This document shows, one piece after another, positions 10,613 through 44,821 of a stretch of 64,000 nucleotides of DNA. The notes under the pieces were generated by a model that saw nothing but the letters and a program-made list of their open reading frames with translations, did no database searches and was not told the DNA's origin. The position numbers and the translations under genes are program-made. The first letter of the stretch is position 1. Every line of letters begins with the position of its first letter. The stretch lies in assembly GCA_023379935.1 (NCBI GenBank), contig JAMCPD010000002.1, positions 4,411 through 68,410 on the forward strand. Reading direction: 5' to 3'. The stretch comes from Actinomycetota bacterium (lineage in GTDB: Bacteria; Actinomycetota; Acidimicrobiia; Acidimicrobiales; JAMCPD01).

Positions 10613-12720
10613 CCCAACTTTGCCGCTGATGCCCGCAACGCCCCTGGTAGTGGGTCTGTAAGGCCTTAATTTGGTCACTACAACCTTGTGCAACTATTGA
10701 ATGGTTTCTCAAAGTAAGTGTCCTTTACCTTCAAGGTGTCGTAGATCTCCTTGTGGCACGCGCTCTAAGAGTGGCAGAGACCCGCAAGTGATGGATCTGG
10801 TCCTTATCGTCTGTAAAGATGATGGTGGATAAGTATATGGGTGGAGAGTATCTCCTTGATGGTCGAAAAACGCCTCGTATCTCCATTTGTCCACAAGTCG
10901 TATTCGATTCCATCCATAATATGGTACGGCAAGAACCGAGATGAACAGATGTGCAGCGGTTCTCTCCGCCAACTGGTGATATACGGGTCTCAGACCGAGG
11001 TCGCTCTTTAGGGATCTAAATGCCTCCTCCACCCTTACGAGGGTCATGTACAGATTCCAGATCTCTTTTGCATCAAGATCTTTGTGGCTGGTGGTGATGG
11101 TGTAACAGCCATATAGAGATGCCCTTTTGGAGTTGCTCTCCAACTCTTTTACTTCAAGGCTTTTCAGTTTCCTCAGATTCTGGTTTTCAGATGTAATGTC
11201 ATAGAGCGGTTTAATCTCGTAGTGCTTTGCAATAGATGGATACTTGGAGGTGATCCTTCCGAGTGCATTTGCCACCTTGAACTCATTTTTGAGCCTGCCC
11301 GCATCTATGCGTTCTTTCAATTTGGAAAGAGCCTGAAAAGAAACGCACTCTGTGCGCCTCATCCATGGAGTGTTCCTTGGCGGCCCTTCCTTCTGATAGA
11401 CACAGGACCCTTGTTCCCTCCTCGCAGGGGATGGCCTTTACATAGACGGCCTCAGAACCCTTCTTCTCCATCTTGGGTGAAGCCCTCTTTTGCATTTAAG
11501 AACTGCTCTGTGTAGGTCGATCTTTTATCGGAACGCTCTATGACTATGTAGGGATATCCCCTCTTTTTCAACAGCTCCAGGTTTTCTTTGGTGGCTATCC
11601 CTCTATCCATGACGATAGACAGAGGCGTTGGAATGGTGTTCACGGCAGAAAGAGAGTCGATTATGTTAGACATTGTGGAGGGCTCAGAACGGTTCCCCTC
11701 GTAGATCTCCGAGTGCACAGGTACTCCCATCTCATCTGTCACCAGCCCAAGTGCAACTAGGCGGCAGTCGGATCTTTTCTCCTTTGAATGGCCGAACCTA
11801 GGAGCGTGGTTATCCTTGCAGCTACCCTCGAAATAGGTGTTGGTTATGTCGAAGAGCAACAGACGCCTCTTGTAGGGTATCTTCTGTGTCCAGATGCGAT
11901 TGGCCATGGCCTCTATCTCGTGTTTCTTCGCGTACAAAAGATCAGCTGTCTCATATATCGCATCTTTTCCTACTGTGGAGACGTCCATTTCTAACATCTC
12001 GGGAAGTGCACTTATCCTCGTTATCCACCTGTGGCTTAAAAGCTCTGATCCTGGAGATATGAGCCTTGCAAGTATCACCGCCTTTGCAAGGGAACGCCTC
12101 CGTGCATCAAGACCGAGAGAGGAAAAGATCTTCTCGAAGCCGACCCGCCTGTAGTATTCGCCAGCTAGAAGTTCTGCACCGAAGGAGCGGTTGAACGAGG
12201 TGGCGGCGGTTGCAACATCTACATTGACATACCTGGCCTCGCGCTTTCTTGTATCCCTCCTTTCTCTGCTGGTTGCAAGGAAGTCGTAGTGGTCAAGTGC
12301 CTTCTCGGCTGCTTTTGCTATCTCGGGATCTTCTTGCAAAAGGCTCTGAATACCGGCAAGTCGATCGGCAATTGCAGTTGCGAGGCTTTTCCACTGTGAT
12401 CTGTCGACATCTAAATGACCGAGATCCATGACCACCCGCTGGCGCGGACCAGACTTGAGTCCTTATGGACTCTACCAGCTGATGCTTTATATAGATAGCT
12501 CTGGTCTTTCTGTTCTTTGTCTCGGTCTCTCGGATGAACATGGTTTAATTATAGCACACTAATATATCAATATCAAGTATTAATTATAAATAAATAAGAT
12601 TAGGTCACTACATTTGCATATCTGTTGACCATCAGCTTTCTTACCAGCTATTTCACATCGCGGCACCCCGAAATATGGCTGTTTTGGGCATTTTTGGGAC
12701 AAATCAGCCGAAAGTTGGGT
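10613..12720 (-). mobile_element. IS1634-family-like insertion sequence, degenerate
   Basis: Imperfect terminal inverted repeats cccaactttgccgctgat (10613-10630) and atcagccgaaagttggg (12704-12720) bracket the transposase reading frames. Confidence 0.7.
10709..12541 (-). pseudogene. IS1634/IS4-superfamily DDE transposase, disrupted by at least 3 frameshifts
   Basis: The N-terminus MFIRETETKNRKTRAIYIKHQLV (12541 downward) continues in another frame as GPRQRVVMDLGHLDV. LLLFDITNTYFEG is the DDE region. The segment KGSEAVYVKAIPCEEGTRVLCLSEGRAAKE lies in a third frame, and the C-terminal 217 aa in yet another. Confidence 0.75.
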
Positions 12721-12764
12721 TAAGTGTTACACTTCGAAGTTGAATCCGCTGTATAATATATGTT

Positions 12765-13097
12765 ATGGATAATAAAGAAGTCCTATTTAATATTGCTAAA
12801 GACCTTGATTTATTTTGGTCGTATTCCAAAGATATAACTTCTGAGAATATGCCTGACGAAATTCTTATCGAAAAAATACTCGCATACGGTGATATCGATG
12901 CCCTTATATTATTATTTAAAACATATCCTTATAACATTTTATATAAAGTATGGGAAAGAGAACTTATTCCAGATGGACGTTTTGAACCGGCAAATTATTT
13001 TTTAGCGAAATTCTTTTTTAATACGAATATAAATAACATTAAAGTAGAAACAAGAATTAATAGACTTATTAAAATTATGAATAAGGAAAGAGGTTGA
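12765..13097 (+). CDS. small partner protein of the AbiEii-type nucleotidyltransferase (putative antitoxin-like, DUF6922-like)
   Basis: LFWSYSKDI....ILIEKILAYGDIDALILLFKTY resembles the small FWD...YG proteins that usually precede AbiEii NTases. The stop overlaps the start of the next gene. About 30% GC. Confidence 0.55.
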   Translation: MDNKEVLFNIAKDLDLFWSYSKDITSENMPDEILIEKILAYGDIDALILLFKTYPYNILYKVWERELIPDGRFEPANYFLAKFFFNTNINNIKVETRINRLIKIMNKERG

Positions 13098-14008
13098 AAA
13101 TGGAGAATATGTCGCTGGAAAATTTATCGCCCGATACTAAAAAAGTTTTTACCGAACTTCTAAATCAGAAATTAGATTTTTTAGAAAATTTTACTTTGGT
13201 TGGTGGATCAGCTTTAGCTATAAGGATAGGCCACAGGCAAAGCGAAGACCTTGATTTTTTCACTTATAAAGACTGGTTTAATAAGAATGAAATATTTAAA
13301 ACTCTCAGTTTCTTTAAAGATAACAAAATATTGTTAGATAGCAAGGAACAGGTTGATTTAATGTGCGGGGGCGTTAAACTGTCTTTTACGAATGTTTCTT
13401 CTAATCCTGCTTGGCATTTTTTAAAACCAGAACTGGAACAGGATAATAAAATCGGATTAGTTAATATTGCTACGCTTGACCAATCATCCGCTATGAAAAT
13501 ACATGTTCTTTTCTTAAGGTCTAAATTTAGAGACTATTATGATAATTATGTTCTATCAAAATACCATATAGGTTTGGGAAAAATATACGAAAATGCCGAA
13601 AAAGTGATTCCGGGAATGACATTTAGACTCTTTACCACGGCGTTGACATATGTAAAAGACATACAGGATGAGAATATTGATTATTTAAAGCCGACATATA
13701 AGGTTACAAAATCTGAAATACAGCAATTTTTTGAAGGGCAAATTAAAGAATATATCAAAACCGAATATTTAAAAGATAAATCAATAACTGAAGTTCAACA
13801 GGAAGGTAATAACCAATCCCAGTTTTCCTGTTATAAATCTATTTACGAAGAATCCGGTCCCGGTGCCACCGTCATGGAAATAAAAAACGACAAAAAAGAT
13901 ACTGGCTGGATTATGCATAATAAAGAAAGAATATTCACAGACAAAACAAGGACAGAGATAGAGAAGGCTATTAAGGAGCAGGACAGGAATAAGGGGATAG
14001 AGAGGTAA
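13094..14008 (+). CDS. nucleotidyltransferase AbiEii/AbiGii toxin family protein with about 75-aa C-terminal extension
   Basis: LVGGSALAIRIGHRQSEDLDFF (GGxAL..R.S.DLDF motif) and KIHVLFLRSKFRDYYDNYVL (RD.YD motif). Likely ATG at 13100. About 30% GC. Confidence 0.7.
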   Translation: MKMENMSLENLSPDTKKVFTELLNQKLDFLENFTLVGGSALAIRIGHRQSEDLDFFTYKDWFNKNEIFKTLSFFKDNKILLDSKEQVDLMCGGVKLSFTNVSSNPAWHFLKPELEQDNKIGLVNIATLDQSSAMKIHVLFLRSKFRDYYDNYVLSKYHIGLGKIYENAEKVIPGMTFRLFTTALTYVKDIQDENIDYLKPTYKVTKSEIQQFFEGQIKEYIKTEYLKDKSITEVQQEGNNQSQFSCYKSIYEESGPGATVMEIKNDKKDTGWIMHNKERIFTDKTRTEIEKAIKEQDRNKGIER

Positions 14009-14046
14009 GCGGTAATATATTTTTTTGCCACTTGTATTCTATTTTT

Positions 14047-14544
14047 GGCTCCTCGCTAGATTGTGTGGATTTGGGGGAGCGGGAGCTTCCCTGCGATGAG
14101 GTAGATGATGGTGATCATCTTGGCCTTGGAGCGGTAGCCACGAGCCCTGCGTTTGGCCGCTTGGGCGAGCGAGTTTGTTCCCTCGAGCAGCCCGTTGCTG
14201 AGCCGGCTCTGCTGCCAGGCAATGATGCCGTCCCAGTGGGCCTCGACCGTGGCGACGAACTCCTTGACCGGCTCCAGCCGTGAGCGTTTGGCCCCGTAGC
14301 ACCAGCGCCGCAGGTACGTCTCGGCCTCTTCGGTACTCGCCAACTTGTGAACTCGTTGAAGTCGTCGCGCCAACGGGCGGCGCGTGTTCCCTCGAGCCGC
14401 ATGGAGGACCGGGTGAGCTTCTCGTGTTGCTTGACGGTGAGGTTGGCCTCGTTCTTTAGCCACATGTAACGGGACCGCTTGAGTTCGGGACGGATCTTCG
14501 ACTCCGCACGACGTACTTCGTCGACCGCTTCATTGGCCTTGGCT
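14047..14544 (-). pseudogene. ISL3-family transposase remnant (C-terminal part, frameshifted, high GC)
   Basis: The terminus GGCTCCTCGCTAG at 14047 is ISL3-like. Translation gives RYMWLKNEANLTVKQHEKL, then after a frameshift EAETYLRRWCYGAKRSRLEPVKEFVATVEAHWDGIIAW...SNGLLEGTNSLAQAAKRRARGY. The 5' part is cut off at the IS3 end. Confidence 0.7.
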
Positions 14545-15135
14545 GGACCTACCCCCTAATTCCGTACATACGAATCTAAAAAATAAAGGAGAATATGTAT
14601 ATGGAAAATAACAAGAATGGAATCAAACCTTTCTTTTTTGAGTGAGTTCAAAGCTGATGCCGTAAAGCTTGTCAATTCAAGTTCCAGGCCTGTTACTCAG
14701 ATCGCGAGAGAGCTGGGAGTATCAGAAAGTGCTTTGAGGGCATGGATAAAGAAGGTAGGTAATGAAAATGACGGAGTTAAGCCTATGTCCATGGAAGAGC
14801 AGTTGAAGCTGGGCAAAAGGGAAAACGAGGAACTTTAGAATGGAGCGGGAAATCTTAAAACGCTTTGGACCTTCTGGGTGAAGGAGACAAACGGGAGATG
14901 ATATACCAGTTCATCTCCTCCCAGAAGGCCAAATTTCCTATAAAGATTCTATGTCGAGTTTGCAATGTCCCTCGTTCAAGCTATTACGACTGGATAAAAG
15001 TTGCAGATTCCAGGGCAAAAAGACAAGCAGAAAGGAATGTCTCAAAAAAGCTGGTCAGTCAAGTGCTATGAGAAGTCAAGATGCAACTACTGAGGCTACC
15101 CATAAGATCACCTTTGCACTGCGTGCTAACAATAT
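14545..15135 (+). pseudogene. IS3-family element remnant (left IR, orfA with premature stop, truncated/frameshifted orfB)
   Basis: IS3-type end TGGACCTACCCCCTAATTCCG. OrfA HTH is AVKLVNSSSRPVTQIARELGVSESALRAWIKK. OrfB N-terminus is FPIKILCRVCNVPRSSYYDW, then ITFALRANNI after a frameshift. No DDE core follows. Confidence 0.7.
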
Positions 15136-15480
15136 CGACTGGGACGCCGGTCGATTGGTCCAAGGTTCCTGTTAGACCCTATGGGTGGGAACCGGACAAA
15201 AACACCCGCAGTTCGCGGGGAAGTGCCCGAGCCGAAGGTCGTAAGACCAAAGGAGAGGAGAGGAAGACCGCTCGTTCGAATTTAGAGAACGAGGCAGTGA
15301 CCGCCCTTAATCGGGAAGCAGCCTTGACACCTGTTGGGGTGTGTGGATGAATATATCATCCCGAGGCTGCACGGCTGGAGCACCAGCCGCTCGTGTGTCA
15401 CTAAAAGACACTTGAAGAGGAACGGATAGTGTTCATGGCAGGAAGGGAGTCTATTATGGCTGACAAAGTGGAGGGCTCAG
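15136..15480 (+). mobile_element. structured GC-rich non-coding segment, possibly a truncated group II intron ribozyme (5' domains only)
   Basis: No coherent ORF. There is a series of strong local hairpins: cccgc-agttc-gcggg, ctcgttc-gaatttaga-gaacgag, ggctgg-agca-ccagcc, gtgtc-actaaaa-gacac. It interrupts IS3 orfB. The assignment rests on general resemblance only. Confidence 0.3.
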
Positions 15481-32413: not shown

Positions 32414-32752
32414 TCACACGTCGTCGAGTGTGTAATCTCCTTCGGGAGTACCGGCGGCAGAAGCTGTACCGGCTGAAGCTGCCCCTGTTGCCCCTGCCCC
32501 TGTTGGGATAAGGTCAATCGGTCCGTTGGCGACGAAAAACTCATCCAGTGCTTTTAGTGCGGCTGTTAGCCCATCCGGTGAAGCTTCGTGACGTTGTTGG
32601 GCATAGTAAGCGGCACCTAGATTGCGCAACAGGGTATCTCCCTGACGCTTTAGCTGTACTTGGTCAAGTTTTGCTTGTCCTTGAGCGATACCTTGTTGTG
32701 TCTTTTGCACTGCCTGCTCAGCCTGTGCTTTTACTTTATCCAGAAATCCCAT
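32414..32752 (-). CDS. hypothetical coiled-coil / low-complexity protein
   Basis: ATG at 32752 (MGFLDKVKAQAEQ) is preceded by AAGGAGAG. The longer ORF-track start at 32800 lacks an RBS. Confidence 0.5.
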   Translation of the reverse strand: MGFLDKVKAQAEQAVQKTQQGIAQGQAKLDQVQLKRQGDTLLRNLGAAYYAQQRHEASPDGLTAALKALDEFFVANGPIDLIPTGAGATGAASAGTASAAGTPEGDYTLDDV

Positions 32753-32843
32753 TATTCTCTCCTTATTGTTTGCTATTCTAGTCTTGTTGTTGTAAGCCAT
32801 AATCTTACGGCATCTATCCTACTACAACGCTACAGCAGTTACC

Positions 32844-33687: not shown

Positions 33688-36600
33688 TCATGTAAACCAC
33701 CCTACCACATCCACAATCACGTTTGTGCTGCCGGCATAGAGGGCGATATTGATTTTACCCGTACTTCCCAGCCCAACGGTTACAGAGTTGGCTATTACAT
33801 TGCCAGATGTGAAGTTTAGGTTTGAAACTACCGGCTGTGCGGCACTTTCCGGCCAAACAGTCAAGTATCCGGAGTTAGTTGGGGATACTGCCGTTACGTT
33901 CAGCACAACAGCAGTTGCATTAGACGGTATAGGCCCCACCCCAGCCAAGTTAAGTGTCAATGGCGCAGAAGACAAAAGCGATGTTCCTGAACACGGAGTG
34001 GCATAGCCAACTGCCGATATTCCCCTGCTGTCACATACCCTATATGGGGTTGTGCCGACAAAAGAGCTCCCGGAAGCAGAAAAGTATCCTGTTACATCCA
34101 CGGCAACGTTTGTACTTCCTGCGAAGTTATAGATGGAAATCATACCCGGTTGTGATCCTGAAGATACGGGAACAATCACAGCGTTCGGAACAGTTTCACC
34201 TGATATGAAGTTCAGGTTTGAAACCACCGGTTTGGAGGAACTTTCGGGCCACACAGTAAGGTATCCTGGATTGGTCGGGCTGATAGCTGTTACATTCAGC
34301 ACAACAGCTGTGGCAGAAGCTGGAACCCCACCTGTTCCTGAACAAGAAGATATAGTGCAAGAACTGCTGGGGGCAACTTTTACATTTAATGTAGTTCCGC
34401 CAGTAAGCGTTTTGCCTTGGCAGTTTGAAAGGTTGGAACCGGACAACTGGCTCGGATCACCACTTCTTGTGTCACATACCCTGTATGGAGTTATTGGCGT
34501 AAAAGTGGAGCCGCCGGGGCTTCCCACATATCCCTCTACGTCAATTACGACATCGCTTATGGCATATGAGTATATAGAGATGCAGCCTGTGCATGAAGAG
34601 GTTGAACCTAAGGTAACTTCAACTAAGTTTGGAACGACTGTTCCTTTTGCATAGTTGAGGCTGGAGGCGGTTGGCCGAGGTTGACCGGCCGGCCAAACAG
34701 TCAAAAATCCGGCGGCACTCGGGTTGATAGCCGTTACGTTCAATATGACTGAACTGGCAGAGGACGGTACGCCATCGGAGGCGTTTGGACCTGCGCTGGT
34801 GGTATCGGAATAAGTACCGGCAATAGGGATGGTGAGAGTGGATGAGTTGCCGTTTGCTCCCAAGGTTAGCCCTCCGCAAGCTGTTAAATCAGTACCGGCA
34901 CTGCCAAGTTTGGAGGGGTTACCGCTTCTTGTATCACAAACACGATAGGGAGTTAGCGGATTATAGGCTGTCCCAGTTGCGGCTGAAGCGGGTAGGTAGG
35001 TATATGCCGTCCAGTCAGAGGTTACGTTTGATACGGAAGCAGTAACTTTAACGGTATACGGTAAAGTTACACCACTTGGCGGTACCGGCACAGTGGCGCT
35101 GCAAGAGGTCGTGGTGGAGCAGGTAACTCCTGAAGCGGCAATGCCTCCAAAAGACACTGACGTTGCACCGCTGCCACCGGTAGTGGAGAACCCTGTTCCA
35201 TTTAAGGTGATGCTGTTGCCTCCCGTTCCGGGCCCATTAGAGGATGAAAGAGAGGTTAAGAGCAGCGGACCGCTTATAGATGGGGTAGTGCCAAGCAGGA
35301 CATTGCCTGAGGTATCTACCGCCGCACAGAATGATGCTGTGGCACATGACACGGAATTTGGAGAAGCACTAGTATCGATACTGTGTGGAGCGGACCAGCT
35401 CGTGCCGTTGTAAGTGAGTGCGTTGGTATAGTCCACCGCCTCACAAAAAGTTGTGCTAACGCATGATACGGATATGAGATTATCAACGGTATCAATGGAT
35501 TGCGGTGGTGACCAGCCACTGCCATTATAGGTCATTTCGTTGCCGGCAAAGTCTACTGCGATACAAAATCCGGCTGATATACATGACACTGAGTCAATGT
35601 CGCCGTTGGTATCAATGGCATCCGGTGCCGACCATGTGGTGCCGTTATAGATAAAGACAGTGCCTGAAGGACCGTTATCTGCTGCCACACAAAAAGTTGA
35701 ACTGACGCACGACACAGAGTGGAGTTGATTGTTGGAATCAATGTTTTGCATGGACCATGAGGTGCCGTTCCATGTGAAGGCGTTGCCCCCGTTGTCAACT
35801 GCCGCACAAAAAGTAGTACTGGCACACGACACAAAATTGGGAGAGCCGGTGGTGTCAAAGTTTGTAGCAGACCAGCTTGTGCCGTTGTAAGTCAATCCGT
35901 CACCATAAGTATTCACTGCCATGCAAAAAGTAGTACTAAGACACGATACGTAAGTGGCAGAAGAATGAGTAGGGTCAACTTGTTGCGCTTTGGACCATGA
36001 GATGCCGTTGTAGATAAGAAAATTACCGGTATTATCCGTTGCCACACAAAAAGTTGAGGTGGTACATGATACGGAGGTGAGGCCGTTGGTGTAGAGAGCG
36101 CCAACTAATGACGGAGACCATGAACTGCCGTTGTAAAAAAGTGTATTGACTGAGCTTCCTACAGTTGCGCAAAATGTTGTACTGGTGCATGACACAGAGT
36201 TTAAATTAACAGGGTAAATGCTTTGTGACGACCATGTGGTGCCGTTATAGGTAAATCCATATCCGGAGGTATCCACCGCCACACAATAAGATGTCAAAGG
36301 GCATGATACGCTGTTGATAGAGTTGTATGGTTTTGGATTTGTGTCAATTTGTTGTGGCGAAGACGACCATGTGGTGCCGTTATAGGTAACTTCATTACCG
36401 GAGGAATCTACTGCTACACAGAAACTGGAGCTGGCACATGACACAGAGGTTAGACCACCTCCGCTTGGATCAATGCTGACAGGAGACGACCAACCGCTGC
36501 CGTTATAGGTAACTTCATTACCGGAGGAATCTACTGCTACACAGAAACTGGAGCTGGCACATGACACAGAGGCAAGAGGCTTGTTTGAAGAGATGTTCTG

Positions 36601-37176
36601 CGGAGACGACCATGTGGTGCCGTTATAGGTAACTTCATTACCGGAGGCGTCTACCGCTACACAGAAACTGGGGCTGGCGCATGACACGGAAGTAAGGGCG
36701 TAACCGCTTCCATCAATGCTTGTCGGAGGTGGCCAAGAGGTGCCATAGCCCACATCCGCATTATCCTTGGCATCCACTGCTACGCAGAAGGTTGTAGTAG
36801 CACATGAGATAGAGGTTATACCACCTCCGTTCGGGTCAATATTTTGCGGAGATGACCAGGCGGTTCCGTTGTAGGTATACACATTGCCGGAAAGGTCTGT
36901 TGTTACACAGAAACTGGAGCTGGCACATGAGATAGAGGGTAAACTACCTCCGTTTGCATTAATATTTGGATCGATATTTTGTGGTGATGACCAAGTCATA
37001 ACGGTAGTTCCGGCTGCGCTGGCTGGAGTCACTGCTGTCATTATTGTTACGAGTGAGGTTGTGGCCAACATTACGATAGAGGCAAGCAAAACAATGAAGC
37101 GCTTTAGTCTGTTTATCCCAAAGTCAAGACCCGACCTGTTTGTTGTTGTGCTCTTGCTGTTTATTGACAAAGTCAT
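33688..37176 (-). CDS. giant secreted repeat protein 1: signal/anchor, 14 two-Cys ~41-aa repeats, one IPT/TIG domain, three C-terminal PYRVCDTRS...LTVWP domains
   Basis: ATG at 37176 is preceded by AAGGAG (the ORF-track TTG is at 37227). Hydrophobic IVLLASIVMLATTSLVTIMTAVTPASA. The repeat motif SVSCxSxxFCVAVD..GN..TYNGTxWS was counted 14 times. Confidence 0.85.
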   Translation of the reverse strand: MTLSINSKSTTTNRSGLDFGINRLKRFIVLLASIVMLATTSLVTIMTAVTPASAAGTTVMTWSSPQNIDPNINANGGSLPSISCASSSFCVTTDLSGNVYTYNGTAWSSPQNIDPNGGGITSISCATTTFCVAVDAKDNADVGYGTSWPPPTSIDGSGYALTSVSCASPSFCVAVDASGNEVTYNGTTWSSPQNISSNKPLASVSCASSSFCVAVDSSGNEVTYNGSGWSSPVSIDPSGGGLTSVSCASSSFCVAVDSSGNEVTYNGTTWSSSPQQIDTNPKPYNSINSVSCPLTSYCVAVDTSGYGFTYNGTTWSSQSIYPVNLNSVSCTSTTFCATVGSSVNTLFYNGSSWSPSLVGALYTNGLTSVSCTTSTFCVATDNTGNFLIYNGISWSKAQQVDPTHSSATYVSCLSTTFCMAVNTYGDGLTYNGTSWSATNFDTTGSPNFVSCASTTFCAAVDNGGNAFTWNGTSWSMQNIDSNNQLHSVSCVSSTFCVAADNGPSGTVFIYNGTTWSAPDAIDTNGDIDSVSCISAGFCIAVDFAGNEMTYNGSGWSPPQSIDTVDNLISVSCVSTTFCEAVDYTNALTYNGTSWSAPHSIDTSASPNSVSCATASFCAAVDTSGNVLLGTTPSISGPLLLTSLSSSNGPGTGGNSITLNGTGFSTTGGSGATSVSFGGIAASGVTCSTTTSCSATVPVPPSGVTLPYTVKVTASVSNVTSDWTAYTYLPASAATGTAYNPLTPYRVCDTRSGNPSKLGSAGTDLTACGGLTLGANGNSSTLTIPIAGTYSDTTSAGPNASDGVPSSASSVILNVTAINPSAAGFLTVWPAGQPRPTASSLNYAKGTVVPNLVEVTLGSTSSCTGCISIYSYAISDVVIDVEGYVGSPGGSTFTPITPYRVCDTRSGDPSQLSGSNLSNCQGKTLTGGTTLNVKVAPSSSCTISSCSGTGGVPASATAVVLNVTAISPTNPGYLTVWPESSSKPVVSNLNFISGETVPNAVIVPVSSGSQPGMISIYNFAGSTNVAVDVTGYFSASGSSFVGTTPYRVCDSRGISAVGYATPCSGTSLLSSAPLTLNLAGVGPIPSNATAVVLNVTAVSPTNSGYLTVWPESAAQPVVSNLNFTSGNVIANSVTVGLGSTGKINIALYAGSTNVIVDVVGWFT
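33691..34965 (-). repeat. three tandem copies of a ~125-155-aa C-terminal domain (protein 1)
   Basis: PYRVCDTRSG ... VVLNVTA..P...GYLTVWP ... SNLNF ... DV.GY(F/V) appears three times. Confidence 0.8.
35284..37002 (-). repeat. 14 tandem ~41-aa (about 123-bp) two-cysteine repeats
   Basis: Motif count taken from the translation. Identical 74-mers at 36376-36449 and 36499-36572 show recent duplication or gene conversion. Confidence 0.85.
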
Positions 37177-37260
37177 AGAAATTCTCCTTGTAGTTCTCTT
37201 GATAATTGCTTTAAAATGGTATGACAATTTAGCATCACTATATAAGGATAATGAGTTGGG

Positions 37261-37289
37261 TTACTAGGGGGATATCCCCCTAAAATAAG
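37261..37289. promoter_or_regulatory. 29-bp conserved motif with perfect 18-bp palindrome TAGGGGGATATCCCCCTA, upstream of giant gene 1
   Basis: ttactagggggatatccccctaaaataag is identical at 28 of 29 positions to 44834-44862, upstream of giant gene 2. Confidence 0.45.
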
Positions 37290-37354
37290 AACCTAAAATC
37301 GGGGAAGAGAATAAGCTGCTTATGTCGTATTTAGCCGTGTTGTATCTCGCGATT

Positions 37355-40300
37355 TCACCCATACCACCCAACCACATCCACGATCACATCTGTTGAACCT
37401 GAGTAGTTGTAGATTGCTATATTGCCTGCTGCGCTAAGAGGTACGGTTACAAAGTTTGGTATAGCTCCGCTAAATTGGGTGAAGTTCAAGTTTGATGAAG
37501 CAGGTTTTGAGGCCCCGGCGGGATAAACGGTTAGATAAGAAGGTGAGGTAGCGTCTGCTTCCGTGACGTTTAGCACAACAGCTTTTGCGCTTTTTTGAAC
37601 AACACCTGTCAAAGAACCGGCAGTCCCTTGATATCCAGATACCTGTACTGACAGAGTTTGACCTGCAGTTATAGTGTTTCCGGTGCACTGATCTGTTATC
37701 TTTGACAGAGTTTGTGACCTAGTGTCACATATCCTATAGGGCACGGTCCCAAAAAATTGAGTTCCAGAGGTAGAAGAGGTAAAGTAACCCACTACGTCTA
37801 TGATTACATCTGTTGAACCTGATAAGTTGTAGACAGAGACAGTCCCGGTTGGCGAAAGCTCGGCTATAACTCCGTTTGGTCTTATCTCACCGGCCGCAAA
37901 GTTTAAGTTTGATGCAACAGGAGGAGTACCGGCAGGATAAACGGTTAGATACCCGCCTTGATTCGAGTCTGCTTCTGTCACGTTTAGTACTACAGCCGCC
38001 CCGCCGGTTTGAGGTACAGCCTGAGAAGGTGAAGCGGCAGTCCCTTGATATCCCGATACCTGTACTGACAGAGTTTGACCTGCAGAAATAGTTTTTCCGG
38101 TGCACTGATCTGTTATCTTTGACAGAGTTTGTGACCTTGTGTCACATATCCTATATGGGGTTAGGGGAACAAAGCTGCCTTGGCCTTTTTGAGATACAGG
38201 TCCAAAGTATCCCTCTACGTCTATTGCTATATCCGTATTACCGTTATAGTTGTAGACGGTTATACAGCCACTACAGCCGGAGGTATTACCTAAAGATACC
38301 TGTACAAGGTTTGGTATTGCTCCTGTTGTTTGATTGAAGTTCAGACTGGAAGAAGCAGGTTTTGTGGCTCCGGCGGGATAAACGGTTAGATATCCAGAAG
38401 ATGTAGACGAAGCTTCTGTCACATTCAGTACTACAGCCATAGCTCCATTTGGAACTATTGAAGCGCCAGAAGCAGCATTTCCCTGATATCCCACAACCTG
38501 TATGGTCAAGTATCCTCCTGGAAGAATAGTCTTGCCGGTGCACTGGTTTTGAAAAGTACCTTTTACGCTAAGTGACCTGGTGTCACATATTCTATAGGGC
38601 ACAAGGGAGTTATACCCACTATAAGTTGTATAGGTATAGCTTAGGGCATTTGAGGTTCCATCAGAAGTCGTAACTGTGACAGAAACTGTTCCTGTTCCAG
38701 AAGGTGATACGGCGCTACATGAGGAAGTGGTAGAACAAGACACTGATGTTGCCGCAGTTGATCCAAATGAAACGGTTGTTCCGCCCGAGGCAGTTGAAAA
38801 ACCAGTCCCTGTTAGAGTCACGCTTGTACCACCCGAAGCAGGTCCTGAAGTCGGAGAAATTGAGGAAAGGGTCGGAGCGGGTATGTAGGTATAAGTAACT
38901 GCACCTGAGGTACCGCCAGCGGTAGTTACTGTAACATTTACACTTCCGCCGCCCGCCGGTCCGACAGGTGTAGTTCCACTACATGAGGAAGTAGTGGAAC
39001 AAGTTACAGAAGTTGCAGGAGTAGATCCAAAGGAAACAGTTGTTCCGCCCGAGGCTGTGGAGAAGTTGGTACCTGTAATACTAAACGATGTACCACCTGT
39101 TTGCGGCCCTGAAGTTGGAGTAATGGAGCTTAGGGTCGGTGAAGTAGCTGTAGTATAGTCATAGTTTATACCACTTGAGGTACCGCCAGCGGTAGTTACT
39201 GTAACAGTTACATTTCCGCCACCCGATGGTCCGACAGGTGTAGTTCCACTACATGAGGAAGTAGTAGAACAAGAAACACCTGTTGCGGGGTTTCCAGTTC
39301 CAAAGTCAATGGTTGTGCCACCCGAGGCTGTGGAGAAGTTGGTACCTGTAATACTAAACGATGTACCACCGGCTTGAGGTCCTGAAGTTGGAGAGATAGA
39401 GGTCAGGGTTGGAAGCGGCATATAGGTATAACTTTGTGCCCCTGAAGTTCCACCTCCGGTTGTAACTGTTACTGAAACCGTTCCTGTTCCAGAAGGTGAT
39501 ACGGCGGTACAAGAGGAAGTCGTAGAACAAGAAACAGATGTTGCCGCATTTGACCCAAAGGAGACGGTTGTTCCGCCTGAGGTGGTTACAAAGTTAGTAC
39601 CGGTTAGTGTTACCGTTGTACCACCACCTGCAGGTCCTGAAGTCGGAGAAATTGAGCTTAGGGTCGGAAGCGGCATATAGGTATAACTTTGTGCCCCTGA
39701 AGTTCCACCTCCGGTTGTAACTGTTACTGAAACTGTTCCTGTTCCAGAAGGTGATACGGCGGTACATGAGGTCGTAGAAGAACAGGAGACAGATGTTGCC
39801 GCATTTGACCCAAAGGAGACGGTTGTTCCACCCGAGATGGTATCAAAGTTAGTACCGGTTAGGGTTACGGTTGTACCGCCTGTTTGTGGTCCTGAAGTTG
39901 GAGAGATACCGGTTAGGGTCGGAAGCGGTATATAGGTATAGCTTTGTCCTGACGAAGTTCCACCTCCGGTTGTAACTGTTACTGAAACCGTTCCTGTTCC
40001 AGAAGGTGATACGGCGGTACATGAGGTCGTAGAAGAACAAGTTACAGATGTTGCTTGGTTTGATCCAAAGGAAGCAGTTGTTCCGCCTGAGGTAGTTACA
40101 AAGTTAGTACCGGTTAGTGTTACCGTTGTACCACCACCTGCAGGTCCTGAAGTCGGAGAGATACCGGTTAGGGTCGGAAGCGGCATATAGGTATAACTTT
40201 GTGCCCCTGAAGTTCCACCTCCGGTTGTAACCGTTACTGAAACCGTTCCTGTTCCAGAAGGTGATACGGCGGTACATGAGGTCGTAGAAGAACAGGAGAC

Positions 40301-43300
40301 AGATGTTGCCGCATTTGATCCAAATGAAACGGTTGTTCCGCCTGTGGTGGTTACAAAGTTAGTACCGGTTAGGGTTACGGTTGTACCGCCTGTTTGTGGT
40401 CCTGAAGTCGGAGAAATTGAGGTAAGGGTTGGAGCGGCAATGTAGGTATAGTTTTGTCCGCCCGAGGTTCCCCCTCTCGTTGCAACCGTGACAGAAACCG
40501 TTCCTGTTCCAACAGGAGATACAGCGGTACATGAGGTTGTAGATGTACAAGAGACTGATGTCCCAGCAGTTTTACCAAAGTCAGCGGCTGTCATTACAGC
40601 GTTGCCACTTTGGTCCATCGCCACACAAAAGCTTGCAGATACACACGAGACAGAATCGAGCCAATGGGTGCCGTCAATGTTTGTGACAGTTGACCAGCCC
40701 GTGCCGTTGTAGGTGAGGGTGTTACCATTTCCGTCCACCGCCACACAAAAGCTTGCAGATACACACGAGACGGAGGCTAGGTCTTGTAAGCTATCTATAC
40801 CGGAAGGTGTTGTCCAGCTTGTGCCGTTGTAGGTCAGGGCGTTACCGTTATAGTCTACCGCCGCACAAAAACTTGTAGAGGGACACGAAACGGAACTTAG
40901 CCAATTGGTGCCGTCAATACTGGCAGGAGACGACCAGCTTGTGCCGTTGTAGGTCAGGGCGTTACCATTTCCGTCCACAGCCGCACAAAAGCTCTGAGAT
41001 ACACACGAGAGGGATAAATTCCCGCCGGCGTTTGTATCAATAGTTGTGGGAGCCGACCAGCTCGTGCCGTCGTAGACCCAGTAGTTGCCGGTTCTGTCTG
41101 CTGCCGTACAAAAGCTCTGAGATACACACGAGACGGAACTGAGCGCATTGGTGCCATCAATGTTTGTAGTCGTCCAGCTCGTGCCGTTGTAGGTGAGGGC
41201 GTTACCACGTGCATCCACAGCCACACAAAAGCTTGCAGATATACACGAAACGGAGGTGAGGAAATTGGTACCGTCAATACTTGTAGCAGCTGACCAGCTC
41301 GTGCCGTTGTAGGTGAGGGCGTTACCATTTCCGTCCACTGCCACACAAAAGCTTACAGATGTACACGAGACGGAATTGAGCCAATTGGTGCCGTCAATAC
41401 TTGTAGCGGGCAGCCAACCGGTGCCAAATAAAACGGTTGTTCCGCCTGTGGTTGTGGAGAAATTAGTACCGGTTAGGGTTACGGTTGTAGCACCCGAAGC
41501 AGGTCCTGAAGTTGGAGAGATAGAGGAAAGCGTCGGAGCGGGAGGATATACTGCTTGTGACAACATGCTGGAAGTAGAGGTAGTAAAGTCTGTATCTCCT
41601 GAGTAGACAGCGGTAATAGAGTGGTTGCCGGGGGAACCATAATTGACGGTGCATGTTGCGTTACCGCCAGATAAAGTAACTGCAGTACATCCCGATATAG
41701 GTGAACCTCCATCCAAGAACTCCACAGTTGCCGTAGGGGTTCCAGAACCCGGTGCAGATACAGACACAGTGGCTGTATATGTAACATTTTGTCCGACAAT
41801 TGAAGGGTTTGGAGATGAAGACACCGAGGTAGATGTAGATGCCTTTGATACACTAAGACCTGTTGTATTAGAAGATGCTACAAAGTTGGAATCACCTGAA
41901 TAACTAGCAGTTATAATGTCTGATCCTAAAGGGGCGTTAGTGGCATAACAAGAACCTGAACCACTGCTAAGGGTAGCAGTACACAAAGTGGTAGGACCTG
42001 ATGTGAATGTAACAGTTCCTGTCGGAGTTACACCTTCTCCTGTTACGGTTGCAGAGTAACTGACACTTTGTCCATAAACAGAAGATGTGGGGGTAGAAGA
42101 AACTGTAATAGCGGCATTGACTGAGTGGAAGATAACTTCGTTACTACCCGCCACCGCCACACAAAAGCTTGCAGATGCACACGAGACGGAACTGAGGATA
42201 TTGGTACCGATAATACTGGTGGGAGCTGACCAGCTGATACCGTTGTAGGTGAGGGCGTTGCCTGAAGAGTCTACCGCCACACAAAAAGTGGATGAAGGAC
42301 ATGAAACAGAGTTGAGGGATGTGCTTCCGTCAATGTTTTTAGCGGTGGACCAGCCTGTGCCGTTGTAGGTTAGGGCGTTGCCTGAAGTATCTACCGCCGC
42401 ACAAAAGGTGGATGAAGGACACGAGACAGAGGTGAGGTATTTTAGGCTATCTATACTGGAAGGTGTCGTCCAGCTCGTGCCGTTGTAGACCAAGTAGTTG
42501 CCTTGGTTGTCCACTGCAACGCAAAAGTTTAAGTATGGTGGGGCACAAGAAACGGAGGTTAGAGTGGTAGGATCAATATTTGTAGGTGTCGCCCAACCGA
42601 AACCGGTGTACATGATTGCATTACCATTTAAATCTACTGCCATACATGTAGTTGTTGAGGTACATGAAACAGAGTTGAGGGATGTGCTTCCGTCAATATC
42701 GGTATTAACAAACCAGCTTGAACCGTTATACAAAAATCCATAGCCGCGGTTATCTACAGCTCCACACGTGACCAAGTTACCAGGACTACACGAGACAGAC
42801 TTGATGACATTAGTACCGTCGAAGTTTGTCGCACTAGTCCAGCTCGTGCCGTTGTAGGTTAGGTAGTTGCCACTTCCGTCCACAGCCATACAGAAGCTCT
42901 GAGAGGGACACGAGACGGATTCGAGCTGGTTGGGATTATCAATGCTGACGGGGCCATACCAGCTTGTAGTGTTATAGGACAAAACATTGCCCTTGTTATC
43001 TACCGCTACACAGAAGTTAGACGATGTACATGAAACGGAGTTGAGAATAATCCAGTTAGCGCCTGCACCGTCTATTCTAAGGGGTGTAGACCAGCTTGTG
43101 CCGTTGTAGATTAGGGCATAACCATTGTAGTCTACCGCCACACAAAAGGTTGTAGATGCACACGATATGGACATGATGGTGGTATTATCAACACTAAGGG
43201 GTGTAGTCCAGCTCGTGCCGTTGTAGGTCAAGGCATAGCCAGTTCCGTCCACAGCCGCACAGAAGTTCTGAGATGTACACGAGACGGACTCGAGGAAGCG

Positions 43301-44821
43301 GGTGCCGTCAATACTGGCAGGAGCTGACCAACTACCGTTGTAGGTGAGGGCGTTGCCATTGTTATCCACCGCCACACAAAAGCTTACAGATGTACACGAG
43401 ACGGACTTGAGGGAATTGGTGCCGTCAATACTGGCAGGAGCTGACCAACTACCGTTGTAGGTGAGGGCGTTGCCATTGTTATCCACCGCCACACAAAAGG
43501 TGGATGATGTACATGATACAGATAAACCCCCGCCGGAGTTTGTATCAATAGTTGTGGCAGCTGACCAGCTCGGGGCGTTGTAGGTGAAGGCGTTGCCTTG
43601 GTCGTCCACCGCTATACAAAAGGTTGATGATGCACATGATACAGATAAAAGCGGCTGGAAGCCGTCAATGTTGGTGGGAAAAGTCCAGCTCGTGCCGTTG
43701 TAGGTAAGGGCGTTGCCGGCATGATCCACCGCTACACAAAAACTTGACGAAGGGCACGAGACAGAATCAATGATGACAGTACCGTCGAAAGTAGTAGCAG
43801 TTGACCAGCTCGTGCCGTTGTAGACCAAGTAGTTGCCAGTGCCATCCACTGCCACACAAAGGGTTCCAGATGCACACGAGACGGAAGTGAGCCAATTGTT
43901 ACCGTCAATAATGGCAGGAGCTGACCAACTACCGTTGTAGGTAAGCGCGTCGCCCAAGTTATCCACAGCCTTACAAAAGGTTGCAGATACACATGAGACG
44001 GAATCAAGCTGGAAGGTGTCAATACTTACAGGGCTCGTCCAACTACCGTCGTATTCAACTGCATTTCCATTTACGTCCACCGCCATACAAAAGCTTGTCG
44101 TTAGACATGAAATGGAAGTGAGGGAATTGGTGCCGTCAATATCGGCATTAACATACCAGCTTGAACCGTTATATAAAAATCCATAACCGCGGTCATCCAC
44201 AGCTCCACACATTATCAAGTTACCGGGGATACACGAGACGGAATTGAGGGAATTGGTGCCGTCAAAGTTTGTTCTCGTCCAGCTCGTGCCGTTGTAGACC
44301 AAGTAGTTGCCACTGTTATCCACTGCCATACAAAAGCTTACAGATGTACACGAGACGGACTCAAGCCAAGTGGTGCCGTCAATACTTGTAGGAGCCGACC
44401 AGCTTGTGCCGTTGTAGGTGAGGGCGTTGCCAGCACTGTCTACCGTCACACAAAAGCTTGTAGATACACACGAGACGGAATTGAGGGGATGATAGATTCT
44501 GTCAATGTTTGTAAGGCTGGTCCAGCTTGTGCCGTTGTAGGTCAAAGCATTACCGCGATTATCCACCGCTATACAAAAGGTTACAGAGGGACACGAGACG
44601 GACTCAAGCCAAGCGGTGCTGTCAATGGGAGTACCAGCCGACCAGAACGATCCTCCTGGCGTTGCTGCTCCGGCTGTTGTGGGAGTGAGGAGTTGTACAG
44701 CTGTGTTGATCCCAACAAGCGTTGATAAGGATACCACCACACAGAGGAGGTTTCTCAATACAAGCGGACGGCTGAGTTTTGAAAGAAATTTTGTACAAAA
44801 CATGCCTATAATCATCAACAA
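37355..44821 (-). CDS. giant secreted repeat protein 2 (2488 aa): signal/anchor, 21 two-Cys repeats, two Ig-like (Big_3_5-like) domains, split IPT with nested 7 repeats, 7 IPT/TIG domains, three C-terminal PYRICDTRS...LTVYP domains
   Basis: One uninterrupted ORF. The likely ATG at 44815 follows AAGAGG. The domain layout was read directly from the translation. Confidence 0.85.
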   Translation of the reverse strand: MLMIIGMFCTKFLSKLSRPLVLRNLLCVVVSLSTLVGINTAVQLLTPTTAGAATPGGSFWSAGTPIDSTAWLESVSCPSVTFCIAVDNRGNALTYNGTSWTSLTNIDRIYHPLNSVSCVSTSFCVTVDSAGNALTYNGTSWSAPTSIDGTTWLESVSCTSVSFCMAVDNSGNYLVYNGTSWTRTNFDGTNSLNSVSCIPGNLIMCGAVDDRGYGFLYNGSSWYVNADIDGTNSLTSISCLTTSFCMAVDVNGNAVEYDGSWTSPVSIDTFQLDSVSCVSATFCKAVDNLGDALTYNGSWSAPAIIDGNNWLTSVSCASGTLCVAVDGTGNYLVYNGTSWSTATTFDGTVIIDSVSCPSSSFCVAVDHAGNALTYNGTSWTFPTNIDGFQPLLSVSCASSTFCIAVDDQGNAFTYNAPSWSAATTIDTNSGGGLSVSCTSSTFCVAVDNNGNALTYNGSWSAPASIDGTNSLKSVSCTSVSFCVAVDNNGNALTYNGSWSAPASIDGTRFLESVSCTSQNFCAAVDGTGYALTYNGTSWTTPLSVDNTTIMSISCASTTFCVAVDYNGYALIYNGTSWSTPLRIDGAGANWIILNSVSCTSSNFCVAVDNKGNVLSYNTTSWYGPVSIDNPNQLESVSCPSQSFCMAVDGSGNYLTYNGTSWTSATNFDGTNVIKSVSCSPGNLVTCGAVDNRGYGFLYNGSSWFVNTDIDGSTSLNSVSCTSTTTCMAVDLNGNAIMYTGFGWATPTNIDPTTLTSVSCAPPYLNFCVAVDNQGNYLVYNGTSWTTPSSIDSLKYLTSVSCPSSTFCAAVDTSGNALTYNGTGWSTAKNIDGSTSLNSVSCPSSTFCVAVDSSGNALTYNGISWSAPTSIIGTNILSSVSCASASFCVAVAGSNEVIFHSVNAAITVSSTPTSSVYGQSVSYSATVTGEGVTPTGTVTFTSGPTTLCTATLSSGSGSCYATNAPLGSDIITASYSGDSNFVASSNTTGLSVSKASTSTSVSSSPNPSIVGQNVTYTATVSVSAPGSGTPTATVEFLDGGSPISGCTAVTLSGGNATCTVNYGSPGNHSITAVYSGDTDFTTSTSSMLSQAVYPPAPTLSSISPTSGPASGATTVTLTGTNFSTTTGGTTVLFGTGWLPATSIDGTNWLNSVSCTSVSFCVAVDGNGNALTYNGTSWSAATSIDGTNFLTSVSCISASFCVAVDARGNALTYNGTSWTTTNIDGTNALSSVSCVSQSFCTAADRTGNYWVYDGTSWSAPTTIDTNAGGNLSLSCVSQSFCAAVDGNGNALTYNGTSWSSPASIDGTNWLSSVSCPSTSFCAAVDYNGNALTYNGTSWTTPSGIDSLQDLASVSCVSASFCVAVDGNGNTLTYNGTGWSTVTNIDGTHWLDSVSCVSASFCVAMDQSGNAVMTAADFGKTAGTSVSCTSTTSCTAVSPVGTGTVSVTVATRGGTSGGQNYTYIAAPTLTSISPTSGPQTGGTTVTLTGTNFVTTTGGTTVSFGSNAATSVSCSSTTSCTAVSPSGTGTVSVTVTTGGGTSGAQSYTYMPLPTLTGISPTSGPAGGGTTVTLTGTNFVTTSGGTTASFGSNQATSVTCSSTTSCTAVSPSGTGTVSVTVTTGGGTSSGQSYTYIPLPTLTGISPTSGPQTGGTTVTLTGTNFDTISGGTTVSFGSNAATSVSCSSTTSCTAVSPSGTGTVSVTVTTGGGTSGAQSYTYMPLPTLSSISPTSGPAGGGTTVTLTGTNFVTTSGGTTVSFGSNAATSVSCSTTSSCTAVSPSGTGTVSVTVTTGGGTSGAQSYTYMPLPTLTSISPTSGPQAGGTSFSITGTNFSTASGGTTIDFGTGNPATGVSCSTTSSCSGTTPVGPSGGGNVTVTVTTAGGTSSGINYDYTTATSPTLSSITPTSGPQTGGTSFSITGTNFSTASGGTTVSFGSTPATSVTCSTTSSCSGTTPVGPAGGGSVNVTVTTAGGTSGAVTYTYIPAPTLSSISPTSGPASGGTSVTLTGTGFSTASGGTTVSFGSTAATSVSCSTTSSCSAVSPSGTGTVSVTVTTSDGTSNALSYTYTTYSGYNSLVPYRICDTRSLSVKGTFQNQCTGKTILPGGYLTIQVVGYQGNAASGASIVPNGAMAVVLNVTEASSTSSGYLTVYPAGATKPASSSLNFNQTTGAIPNLVQVSLGNTSGCSGCITVYNYNGNTDIAIDVEGYFGPVSQKGQGSFVPLTPYRICDTRSQTLSKITDQCTGKTISAGQTLSVQVSGYQGTAASPSQAVPQTGGAAVVLNVTEADSNQGGYLTVYPAGTPPVASNLNFAAGEIRPNGVIAELSPTGTVSVYNLSGSTDVIIDVVGYFTSSTSGTQFFGTVPYRICDTRSQTLSKITDQCTGNTITAGQTLSVQVSGYQGTAGSLTGVVQKSAKAVVLNVTEADATSPSYLTVYPAGASKPASSNLNFTQFSGAIPNFVTVPLSAAGNIAIYNYSGSTDVIVDVVGWYG
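37358..38623 (-). repeat. three tandem copies of the C-terminal domain (protein 2)
   Basis: PYRICDTRS ... AVVLNVTEA....GYLTVYPAG ... SNLNF ... DVVGYF appears three times (155, 139 and 128 aa). Confidence 0.8.
38624..40438 (-). repeat. seven tandem IPT/TIG-domain coding units (255-270 bp each)
   Basis: Unit boundaries fall at about 40438, 40183, 39928, 39673, 39418, 39148, 38881 and 38624. The central four 255-bp units share long near-identical DNA stretches. Confidence 0.85.
40580..41416 (-). repeat. 7 two-Cys repeats (279 aa) nested inside an IPT/TIG domain
   Basis: The IPT N-half ...GGTTVLFGTG (41417-41542) and the C-half FGKTAGTSVSCTSTTSCTAVSP... (40439-40579) flank the block. Confidence 0.8.
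41543..42121 (-). repeat. two Ig-like domains (bacterial Ig group 3-like)
   Basis: YGQSVSYSATVTGEGVTPTGTVTF...ASYSGDSNF and VGQNVTYTATVS..GTPTATVEFLDGG...AVYSGDTDF. Confidence 0.65.
42122..44650 (-). repeat. 21 tandem ~40-aa two-cysteine repeats
   Basis: The motif (S/T)(V/I)SC....(F/L/M/T)C.AVD was counted 21 times in residues about 58-900. Confidence 0.85.

Follow-up and report, generated by a model that had tools for sequence, protein, structure and literature searches.

What do two giant proteins do in which a short unit with two cysteines recurs in blocks of 14, 21 and 7, and do these numbers mean that the units close into rings? The question is raised by a stretch of 64,000 nucleotides (hereafter the window; contig JAMCPD010000002.1 of assembly GCA_023379935.1, positions 4,411 to 68,410) from an Actinomycetota bacterium of the order Acidimicrobiales. 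Two open reading frames (ORFs), A and B, lie there head to tail on the minus strand, at exactly the coordinates that a preliminary description of the sequence had given. That description had interpreted them as paralogous secreted proteins made of stacked seven-bladed beta-propellers.

Repeat units and the number seven

Counted by the positions of the cysteine pairs, A has 14 units (C101/C107 to C628/C634) and B has 21 (C77/C83 to C881/C887), then 7 more (C1153/C1159 to C1393/C1399). The spacing between units is 38-45 amino acids (aa), i.e. the unit is ~40 aa long. The literal motif from which these numbers had first been derived proved too strict, giving 6 and 14 matches only, whereas the numbers themselves are exact by cysteine pairs, and the consensus proposed for the unit was reproduced. 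A hidden Markov model (HMM) built from the 42 units of A and B confirmed the count with 14 hits in A and 28 in B, or 29 if the partial N-terminal strand of the internal block is included, and gave no hit in any other reading frame of the window. The units contain 84 cysteines, as had been estimated; counted over the whole protein, A has 40 cysteines and B has 86.

The composition of both proteins is as one-sided as originally noted: Ser, Thr, Gly, Val and Asn make up 56-59% of the residues, Asp, Glu, Lys and Arg only 5.7-6.5%, and the isoelectric point (pI) is ~4.1. In each, a basic stretch at the N-terminus is followed by a single hydrophobic segment (hydropathy and inspection by eye), which is consistent with export, and the LPXTG motif is absent from both sequences; on both counts the earlier observations were reproduced. 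The common unit, together with C-terminal modules of 425 aa that align collinearly at 44% identity, makes A and B paralogs on sequence grounds, as had been proposed.

The chance of three independent blocks all being multiples of seven is ~(1/7)^3 = 0.003, and we do not regard the pattern as accidental because the counts peak at 7 and 14 across the family. Within B there is no period-7 signal in the unit-to-unit similarity; units B03-B05 resemble B15-B17, i.e. at an offset of 12. The arrays therefore did not grow by copying whole propellers, and the total of 21 in B looks as if it were upheld by folding constraints rather than by whole-ring copying. We note that units 10 and 11 of the array of B share 95% DNA identity (43271..43499).

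The same numbers recur in homologs. Exactly 7 units are carried by 94 of the 120 best short homologs, the remainder being mostly arrays that reach a sequence end or have an extra partial-strand hit, and 14 units by 91 of the 120 best longer ones. In a survey of 80 loci (L001-L080) from GTDB species genomes, made with a profile of 9 closer sequences, the block counts peak at 7 (36 blocks) and 14 (19 blocks), and most counts of 13 turn into 14 when the weak last unit is added. There are exceptions, with 8 units (L021, L028), 9 (L001, L036, L039), 11 (L058), 12 (L007, L059, L078) and ~26 (L060), and similar arrays that are not multiples of seven also occur among the top library representatives. 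Arrays of 16 in two loci of uncultured Acidimicrobiaceae/Acidimicrobiales consist of two near-identical sets of 8 (L014, ORF aa 812-1408; L025, aa 2231-2829), which suggests recently duplicated 8-bladed propellers of the same family.

In other words, the family permits other blade numbers, seven per ring being by far the commonest: a strong mode and not a rule. The claim that the unit always comes in multiples of seven thus holds for A and B and for the commonest homologs, but not for the arrays of 8, 2x8, 9 and 12. The preliminary description had taken homologs outside the 7n series as incompatible with propellers. Such homologs were found, yet they fit propellers of another blade number and leave the evidence from the window untouched.

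The predicted propeller fold and its cysteines

The 7-unit block of B (aa 1130-1415) was modelled by AlphaFold (AF2), the input alignment comprising 51 family members. It came out as a closed all-beta domain with about four strand elements per unit (predicted local distance difference test, pLDDT, 95.9; predicted template modelling score, pTM, 0.93). In a full-length Foldseek search of the PDB the first matches were to Ycf48 (5ojr, 5oj5, 2xbg), with query TM-scores (TMq) of 0.75-0.78, E ~1e-14 and 12-15% identity, followed by 7-bladed WD40 proteins including G-beta and beta'-COP (TMq up to 0.83). Ring closure, which had been suggested as a test of the idea, is thus seen in the prediction, and the model supports a seven-bladed beta-propeller.

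The 14-unit block (A aa 72-662, 50 sequences) gave a model with pLDDT 91.4 and pTM 0.77, whose single internal stretch of low confidence, residues 301-310, lies just past unit 7. Its best matches are tandem 7+7 propellers, namely 2ymu, Aip1 (1nr0) and Utp21 (4nsx), over 608-655 columns. The model therefore supports two tandem 7-bladed rings and not one large ring. The earlier reading of the blocks as one, two and three stacked propellers is in this way borne out by models for the first two, and for the 21 units of B it would hold by extension only.

The ends of the blocks point in the same direction. Every block opens with one extra short strand, W-S-x-P-x-x-I-D, ahead of the first SVSC, and the last unit of every block ends after C-x-A-V-D-x-x-G-N-x-x, i.e. 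without the YNGTSW turn. This is the layout expected of a 'velcro' ring, in which three C-terminal strands are completed by one N-terminal strand. Each ring is therefore probably closed in this manner, with adjacent N and C termini. The order of the strands in a blade would be A, SVSC.S; B, FC.AVD; C, GNALTY; and D, W-S-x-P-x-x-ID.

The position of the internal block of B is also telling. Its flanks, PTLSSISPTSGPASGATTVTLTGTNFSTTTGGTTVLFG in front and FGKTAGTSVSCTSTTSCTAVSPVGTGTVSVTVATRGGTSGGQNYTY behind, can be rejoined to a single TIG domain, which is identical to the next TIG of the array at 65 of 89 positions (73%). The block is nested in a TIG loop, and its two ends must therefore be near each other, as is the case in a closed propeller. 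An 'FG' is repeated on either side of the insertion, ..VLFG-TG[propeller]AD-FG-KTAG.. (40439..41545, minus strand).

B carries nine TIG domains, the first one split, and two Big_3_5 domains. The linker of A is related to the TIG of B by Smith-Waterman alignment (score 201, against 64.7+/-8.7 for shuffled sequences, none of 500 shuffles reaching 201), and was detected neither by Pfam nor by BLASTP against a TIG of B. At the DNA level the TIG array of B (38902..40561) is a tandem repeat of 255-270 bp with 86% identity and ~6.5 copies. Near-identical DNA repeats recombine readily and tend to collapse in assembly; where relatives were assembled from short reads, their copy numbers may therefore be unreliable.

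The two cysteines are kept throughout the family almost without exception: among 3279 units from ~300 proteins the first is kept in 3278 and the second in 3274 (each >99.8%). The unit HMM favours units with cysteines; even so, the alignments, in which both columns are invariant, plainly show how little these positions vary. Only 6 of the 6558 cysteine positions are lost, which is too few for pairing to be derived from joint losses. They sit on either side of the A-B hairpin, where structural disulfides are the most likely reading; such bonds would suit a protein that is probably exported, nearly charge-free and acidic.

Which cysteine would be bonded to which depends on the register of this hairpin. 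According to DSSP a two-residue turn separates ...S-C-x-S from F-C-... in every blade of both models (E19-26 and E29-34 in the 7-unit model). A plain 2:2 hairpin would put the two cysteines of a unit on opposite faces of the blade, leaving room for bonds to neighbouring blades, and a bulged 3-residue turn would place them directly opposite each other; the DSSP strings leave the register ambiguous.

It is accordingly worth weighing whether the cysteines bond to the neighbouring blade, closing the ring covalently, or whether the 14 thiols of a ring bind metal, instead of forming simple staples within a blade. The register suggested by DSSP would set the two cysteines diagonally, on opposite faces, and the faces that would result (V/C/V/F against S/A/C/P) put large residues against small ones, as tight packing between blades needs. 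This is a deduction from register, which the DSSP strings do not fix, and a bulged turn would pair the cysteines within the unit. Distances between sheets are usually too long for a disulfide, and metal binding has as its sole support an automatic Joint Genome Institute (JGI) label on a few homologs. Moreover, the bonds of the solved precedent, CRINKLY4, are intrablade, and we consider either alternative unlikely.

That precedent is the ectodomain of the plant protein CRINKLY4 (ACR4/PpCR4), in which seven repeats of ~39 aa form a seven-bladed propeller and each blade has a conserved disulfide, taken by its authors as an adaptation to the extracellular milieu (bioRxiv 10.1101/2020.08.10.245050). 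The likeness lies in the extracellular location and the number of blades, both of them predicted for A and B, in the length of the repeat and in the cysteines in every blade. The differences are that CRINKLY4 is a eukaryotic receptor kinase of an RCC1/BLIP-II-like lineage with another repeat sequence, that it has a single propeller whose N-terminal strand plugs the pore, and that it is not among the top 50 fold matches of the 7-unit model.

A large family and its known relatives

Both proteins were scanned against Pfam and NCBIfam, and the 7-unit block and 51 relatives were scanned at E<=0.01. On the unit, no model of Pfam-A or NCBIfam reached its cutoff. In particular, neither the proteins of the window nor the 51 relatives matched BNR, BNR_2 or PSII_BNR (PF02012, PF13088, PF14870) at E<=0.01, and there was no match to Kelch, PQQ, RCC1 or WD40 models in the repeat region. 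A few homologs are listed with RCC1 in precomputed whole-protein annotation, which does not give the location within the protein. Hits of Qn_am_d_aII (0 valid stretches), the IFT80 propeller, AsmA and DUF5643 in the repeat region were rejected as sub-threshold or composition-driven noise.

The family that does recur is Tectonin (PF19193). It is matched by 15 of the 51 relatives at E<=0.01, by one with 34.2 bits (the cutoff is 30) and by the rest with 25-30 bits, whereas the proteins of the window and the 7-unit block gave no match at E<=0.01 and so stay below 30 bits. The claim that the unit belongs to no named family thus stands at curated thresholds, with the restriction that some homologs touch Tectonin. 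Tectonins (Physarum tectonins, Limulus L-6, Laccaria Lb-Tec2) are lectin propellers that bind glycans such as O-methylated sugars and LPS; the known structures are 6-bladed and are not known to have a cysteine pair. They resemble A and B in building a propeller from short (~36-40 aa), near-identical blades, and are used as extracellular multivalent glycan binders; Tectonin is also the sole Pfam family that repeatedly matches relatives of the unit. On the other side, the propeller of the window itself does not reach the PF19193 model, and no PDB tectonin was found by sequence. Judged by these profile matches, the family probably represents a remote offshoot of a propeller lineage that is already known, and kinship to Tectonin would be distant at most.

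Sequence searches of the PDB with protein B, the family profile and the most Tectonin-like homolog gave nothing significant for the unit; the only significant matches were to TIG/plexin. Sec13 (E 0.03) and DFPase (E 0.09) appeared in these searches without reaching significance. By structure the best match is Ycf48/HCF136 (PSII_BNR), which has a comparable C-D turn ending in Trp, but is a photosystem II assembly factor without cysteine pairs or tandem arrays. The turn of our unit, [T]-[YFW]-[ND]-G-[ST]-[ST]-W, is one residue shorter than the Asp-box S-x-D-x-G-x-T-W, as had been remarked of YNGTSW, and the similarity to Asp-box proteins and Ycf48 is one of fold only.

Two further groups are comparable in layout. 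In the tandem WD40 propellers mentioned above (the Nostoc protein 2ymu, Aip1, Utp21), 14 near-identical ~40-aa units likewise give two 7-bladed rings; WD40 proteins, however, are cytoplasmic, whereas A and B would be exported, have cysteines in the blades and show no WD40 signature or Pfam match. Highly repetitive tandem WD40 proteins belong to a general class of recently amplified propellers (PMC9218822). The other group comprises secreted bacterial propellers whose repeated blades provide several sugar sites per ring, i.e. the seven-bladed PLL/PHL lectins of Photorhabdus and the UmbA lectins of Streptomyces. The UmbA propellers of the Streptomyces umbrella toxins bind cell-wall glycopolymers of other actinobacteria, the characterised ones being 5- or 6-bladed, and the disulfides of PLL join subunits and are not placed one per blade. 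No sequence relationship between the unit and PLL/PHL or UmbA was detected.

The size of the family was estimated by a profile search over 1.84 billion cluster representatives (clusters at 50% identity), in which 33,940 proteins reached E<=1e-3, 23,652 of them E<=1e-10 and 9,486 E<=1e-30. The carriers are mainly Acidimicrobiia, Solirubrobacterales and Actinomycetes, with a few Saccharibacteria, Dormibacteria and Chloroflexota, and include the cultured Pedococcus bigeumensis, Flexivirga alba and Trebonia kvetii. In Actinomycetota from soil and peat the domain thus seems to rank among the major extracellular modules. In public databases the homologs are named 'hypothetical protein' or after accessory domains only (Ig, FN3, DUF4232), and full-text literature searches found no account of this repeat. 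There are thus ~34,000 clusters with this blade, yet we found no Pfam or NCBIfam model, solved structure or paper for the family.

What is already known is the fold and the general logic, i.e. a repetitive extracellular propeller whose blades are stabilised by cysteines and which is borne on an Ig-like stalk. The novelty lies in the family itself: it is large and uncurated, and its per-blade cysteine pair and partner C-terminal module are undescribed. It is also a clean natural case of propeller evolution, with near-identical blades, seven per ring across arrays of 7, 14 and 21, and one ring nested in an Ig-like domain.

In the 80 surveyed loci, 72 contained ORFs of the propeller family (101 ORFs altogether). 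Tandem or nearby paralogs are common, as in the window, and no gene neighbours other than such paralogs are conserved.

Proposed function and genomic setting

The distribution of variability within the unit was examined by the entropy per position. The most variable positions (15, 16, 18, 31-32 and 35-38) lie in the B-C and D-A loops and adjoin the conserved Asp14 and Asp34, and the A-B loop with the cysteines and the C-D turn, the Asp-box-like N-G-S/T-S/T-W, are conserved. Propeller topology implies that the B-C and D-A loops lie on one face of the ring and the A-B loop and C-D turn on the other.

The company of the propeller is varied. It is found fused to GH18 chitinase, CBM5/12, peptidase A4, PASTA, FN3, He_PIG, Big and TIG domains and to N-terminal zinc-ribbon anchors, and also alone on small secreted proteins, many of them of 320-490 aa. 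Extracellular binding modules typically show such a pattern. The best viral fold matches of the propeller are phage tail-fibre-like proteins.

A and B both end in three tandem ~140-aa repeats with the pattern PYR[VI]CDTR ... LNVTA ... GYLTV[WY]P ... D[VI].G[WY]F, for which Pfam, NCBIfam and PDB sequence searches gave no match. The triple unit occurs at full length in >3,500 protein clusters. It is often joined to peptidoglycan-active enzymes (CAP, YkuD with PG_binding_1, M23, CHAP, GH25, Amidase_2, SpoIID), which points to a wall-targeting module, and also to GH114, GDSL and subtilase domains. Judging from these fusions it may be an undescribed cell-wall anchor, which would account for the retention on the cell of proteins that lack LPXTG.

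Taken together, we favour, with a probability of about 60%, a multivalent lectin-like surface adhesin. A and B would be exported, wall-associated proteins whose working parts are closed seven-bladed propellers of the 40-aa blade, two in A and three plus one in B, the single one being held in a TIG loop. Each ring would offer up to seven ligand sites, on its variable face or in the grooves between the blades, the most likely ligand being a glycan. The Ig/TIG domains would serve as a stalk, and non-covalent attachment to the cell wall would be provided by the C-terminal triple module. The outcome would be high avidity.

Several points weigh against this reading. The link to lectins runs through borderline Tectonin matches in relatives, the block of the window itself falling short of that model, and the best fold match, Ycf48, is an assembly factor and not a lectin. 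In the 80 loci no conserved neighbour gene points to a pathway. Glycan binding and surface location are proposals from relatives and domain architecture, the signal peptides are putative (hydropathy and inspection by eye being consistent with them), and the pairing of the cysteines is presumed. Finally, the three-propeller parse of the 21 units of B is an extrapolation from the 7- and 14-unit models.

Both of the other functions that we considered are less likely than a lectin-like adhesin. As structural surface-layer or sheath proteins, A and B would use their propellers as rigid, disulfide-hardened lattice blocks with no specific external ligand. Very large, acidic (pI ~4.1), Ser/Thr-rich, charge-poor and apparently exported proteins are indeed reminiscent of many surface-layer glycoproteins, the tripling of the C-terminal module brings three SLH domains to mind, and the lack of conserved partner genes would agree with such a role. 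However, a single small propeller on enzymes (GH18, peptidases) and on proteins of 320-490 aa fits an accessory binder better than a lattice subunit, and the hypervariability of one propeller face also counts against a lattice, so that we judge this role improbable. A catalytic propeller, i.e. a glycosidase, a sialidase-like or another Asp-box enzyme, is more improbable still: the Asp-box-type Ycf48 propeller is among the best fold matches and the N-G-S/T-S/T-W turn resembles a shortened Asp-box, but there is no Pfam match to BNR, BNR_2, PSII_BNR or any glycosidase, the near-identical blades, almost uncharged save for two Asp each, provide no unique active-site constellation, and the presence of six propellers in two proteins, like their fusion in homologs to genuine enzymes (GH18), speaks for an accessory role.

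A wider version of the adhesin reading can be put forward tentatively, and we consider it rather doubtful as a whole. In it the 40-aa unit would define a family of lectin-like propellers that is very large, undescribed and spread over Actinomycetota and neighbouring phyla, with disulfides that may run from blade to blade and sets of seven blades, held on the wall by the triple 'PYRxCDTR...GYLTVWP' repeat as a general wall-targeting device for many peptidoglycan-active enzymes. If the propellers do bind glycans, they would represent a new class of lectin or carbohydrate-binding module (CBM), and the fusions to GH18 chitinase would matter for how polymers are turned over in soils.

The coordinates of the two ORFs and of their parts are collected in Table 1. 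In the public annotation of assembly GCA_023489215.1 (contig JAMDDC010000008.1) ORF A is 1162 aa long, with an ATG start at 37176.

Table 1. ORFs A and B and their domains, in positions of the window.
Feature	Coordinates	Strand	Remarks
ORF A	33688..37227	minus	1179 aa counted from first TTG; signal/anchor, 2 predicted propellers, TIG-like domain, triple C-terminal module
A, putative N-terminal export signal or membrane anchor	37012..37176	minus	Basic n-region and hydrophobic core, ends ...TPASAA; sole hydrophobic 19-aa windows in the protein
A, predicted propeller 1, units 1-7, aa 78-376	36100..36996	minus	Begins with extra strand W-S-S-P-Q-N-I-D; pLDDT dip at junction after unit 7
A, predicted propeller 2, units 8-14, aa 377-646	35290..36099	minus	Final unit without YNGTSW
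A, divergent TIG-like Ig domain, aa 647-752	34972..35289	minus	Smith-Waterman against TIG of B
A, three tandem ~140-aa repeats, unnamed module, proposed cell-wall binder	33691..34971	minus	Motif PYRVCDTR ... LNVTA ... GYLTVWP ... DV.GYF
ORF B	37355..44821	minus	2488 aa; AAGAGG ribosome-binding site just upstream of TTG/ATG starts
B, putative N-terminal export signal or anchor	44657..44821	minus	Hydropathy
B, continuous 21-unit array, aa 59-899	42125..44647	minus	Read as three 7-bladed propellers by extrapolation from the 7- and 14-unit models
B, two Big_3_5 Ig-like domains	41546..42124	minus	PF16640, 1.6e-29
B, N-terminal half of TIG domain 1	41420..41545	minus	Broken off after ...GGTTVLFG
B, single predicted 7-bladed propeller, 7 units, aa 1135-1414, nested in TIG domain 1	40580..41419	minus	Cys pairs, model, rejoined TIG
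B, C-terminal half of TIG domain 1	40439..40579	minus	FGKTAGTSVSC...; rejoined halves 65/89 identical to next TIG
B, seven further TIG/IPT domains	38630..40438	minus	DNA is a 255-bp tandem repeat, 86% identity
B, triple C-terminal module	37358..38629	minus	Collinear with that of A, 44% identity

Upstream of the pair lies a nitrite/sulfite reductase gene, and downstream an AIM24-family gene, acyl-CoA dehydrogenases and a biotin-synthase-like radical SAM gene; the other flank contains UvrD, a Mur ligase and Ddl. The neighbours are housekeeping genes, hence A and B are chromosomal and have no obvious operon partners. Between the AIM24-family and acyl-CoA dehydrogenase genes there is a 128-aa ORF (32414..32800, minus strand) with no Pfam match, which is 112-128 aa long in public assemblies. 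Rfam and tRNA scans across the whole window found nothing.

Elsewhere in the window there is a low-GC island (10700..15350), with a GC content of 0.37 at 12-14 kb against ~0.48 elsewhere. It contains broken transposase genes, i.e. a DDE_Tnp_1 split over two ORFs, an ISL3 C-terminal fragment and an IS3-type HTH fragment. Inside the island lies a gene for an AbiEii-type nucleotidyltransferase toxin (13094..14008), and the small ORF upstream of it (12765..13097), which has no Pfam match, could be the partner of the toxin.

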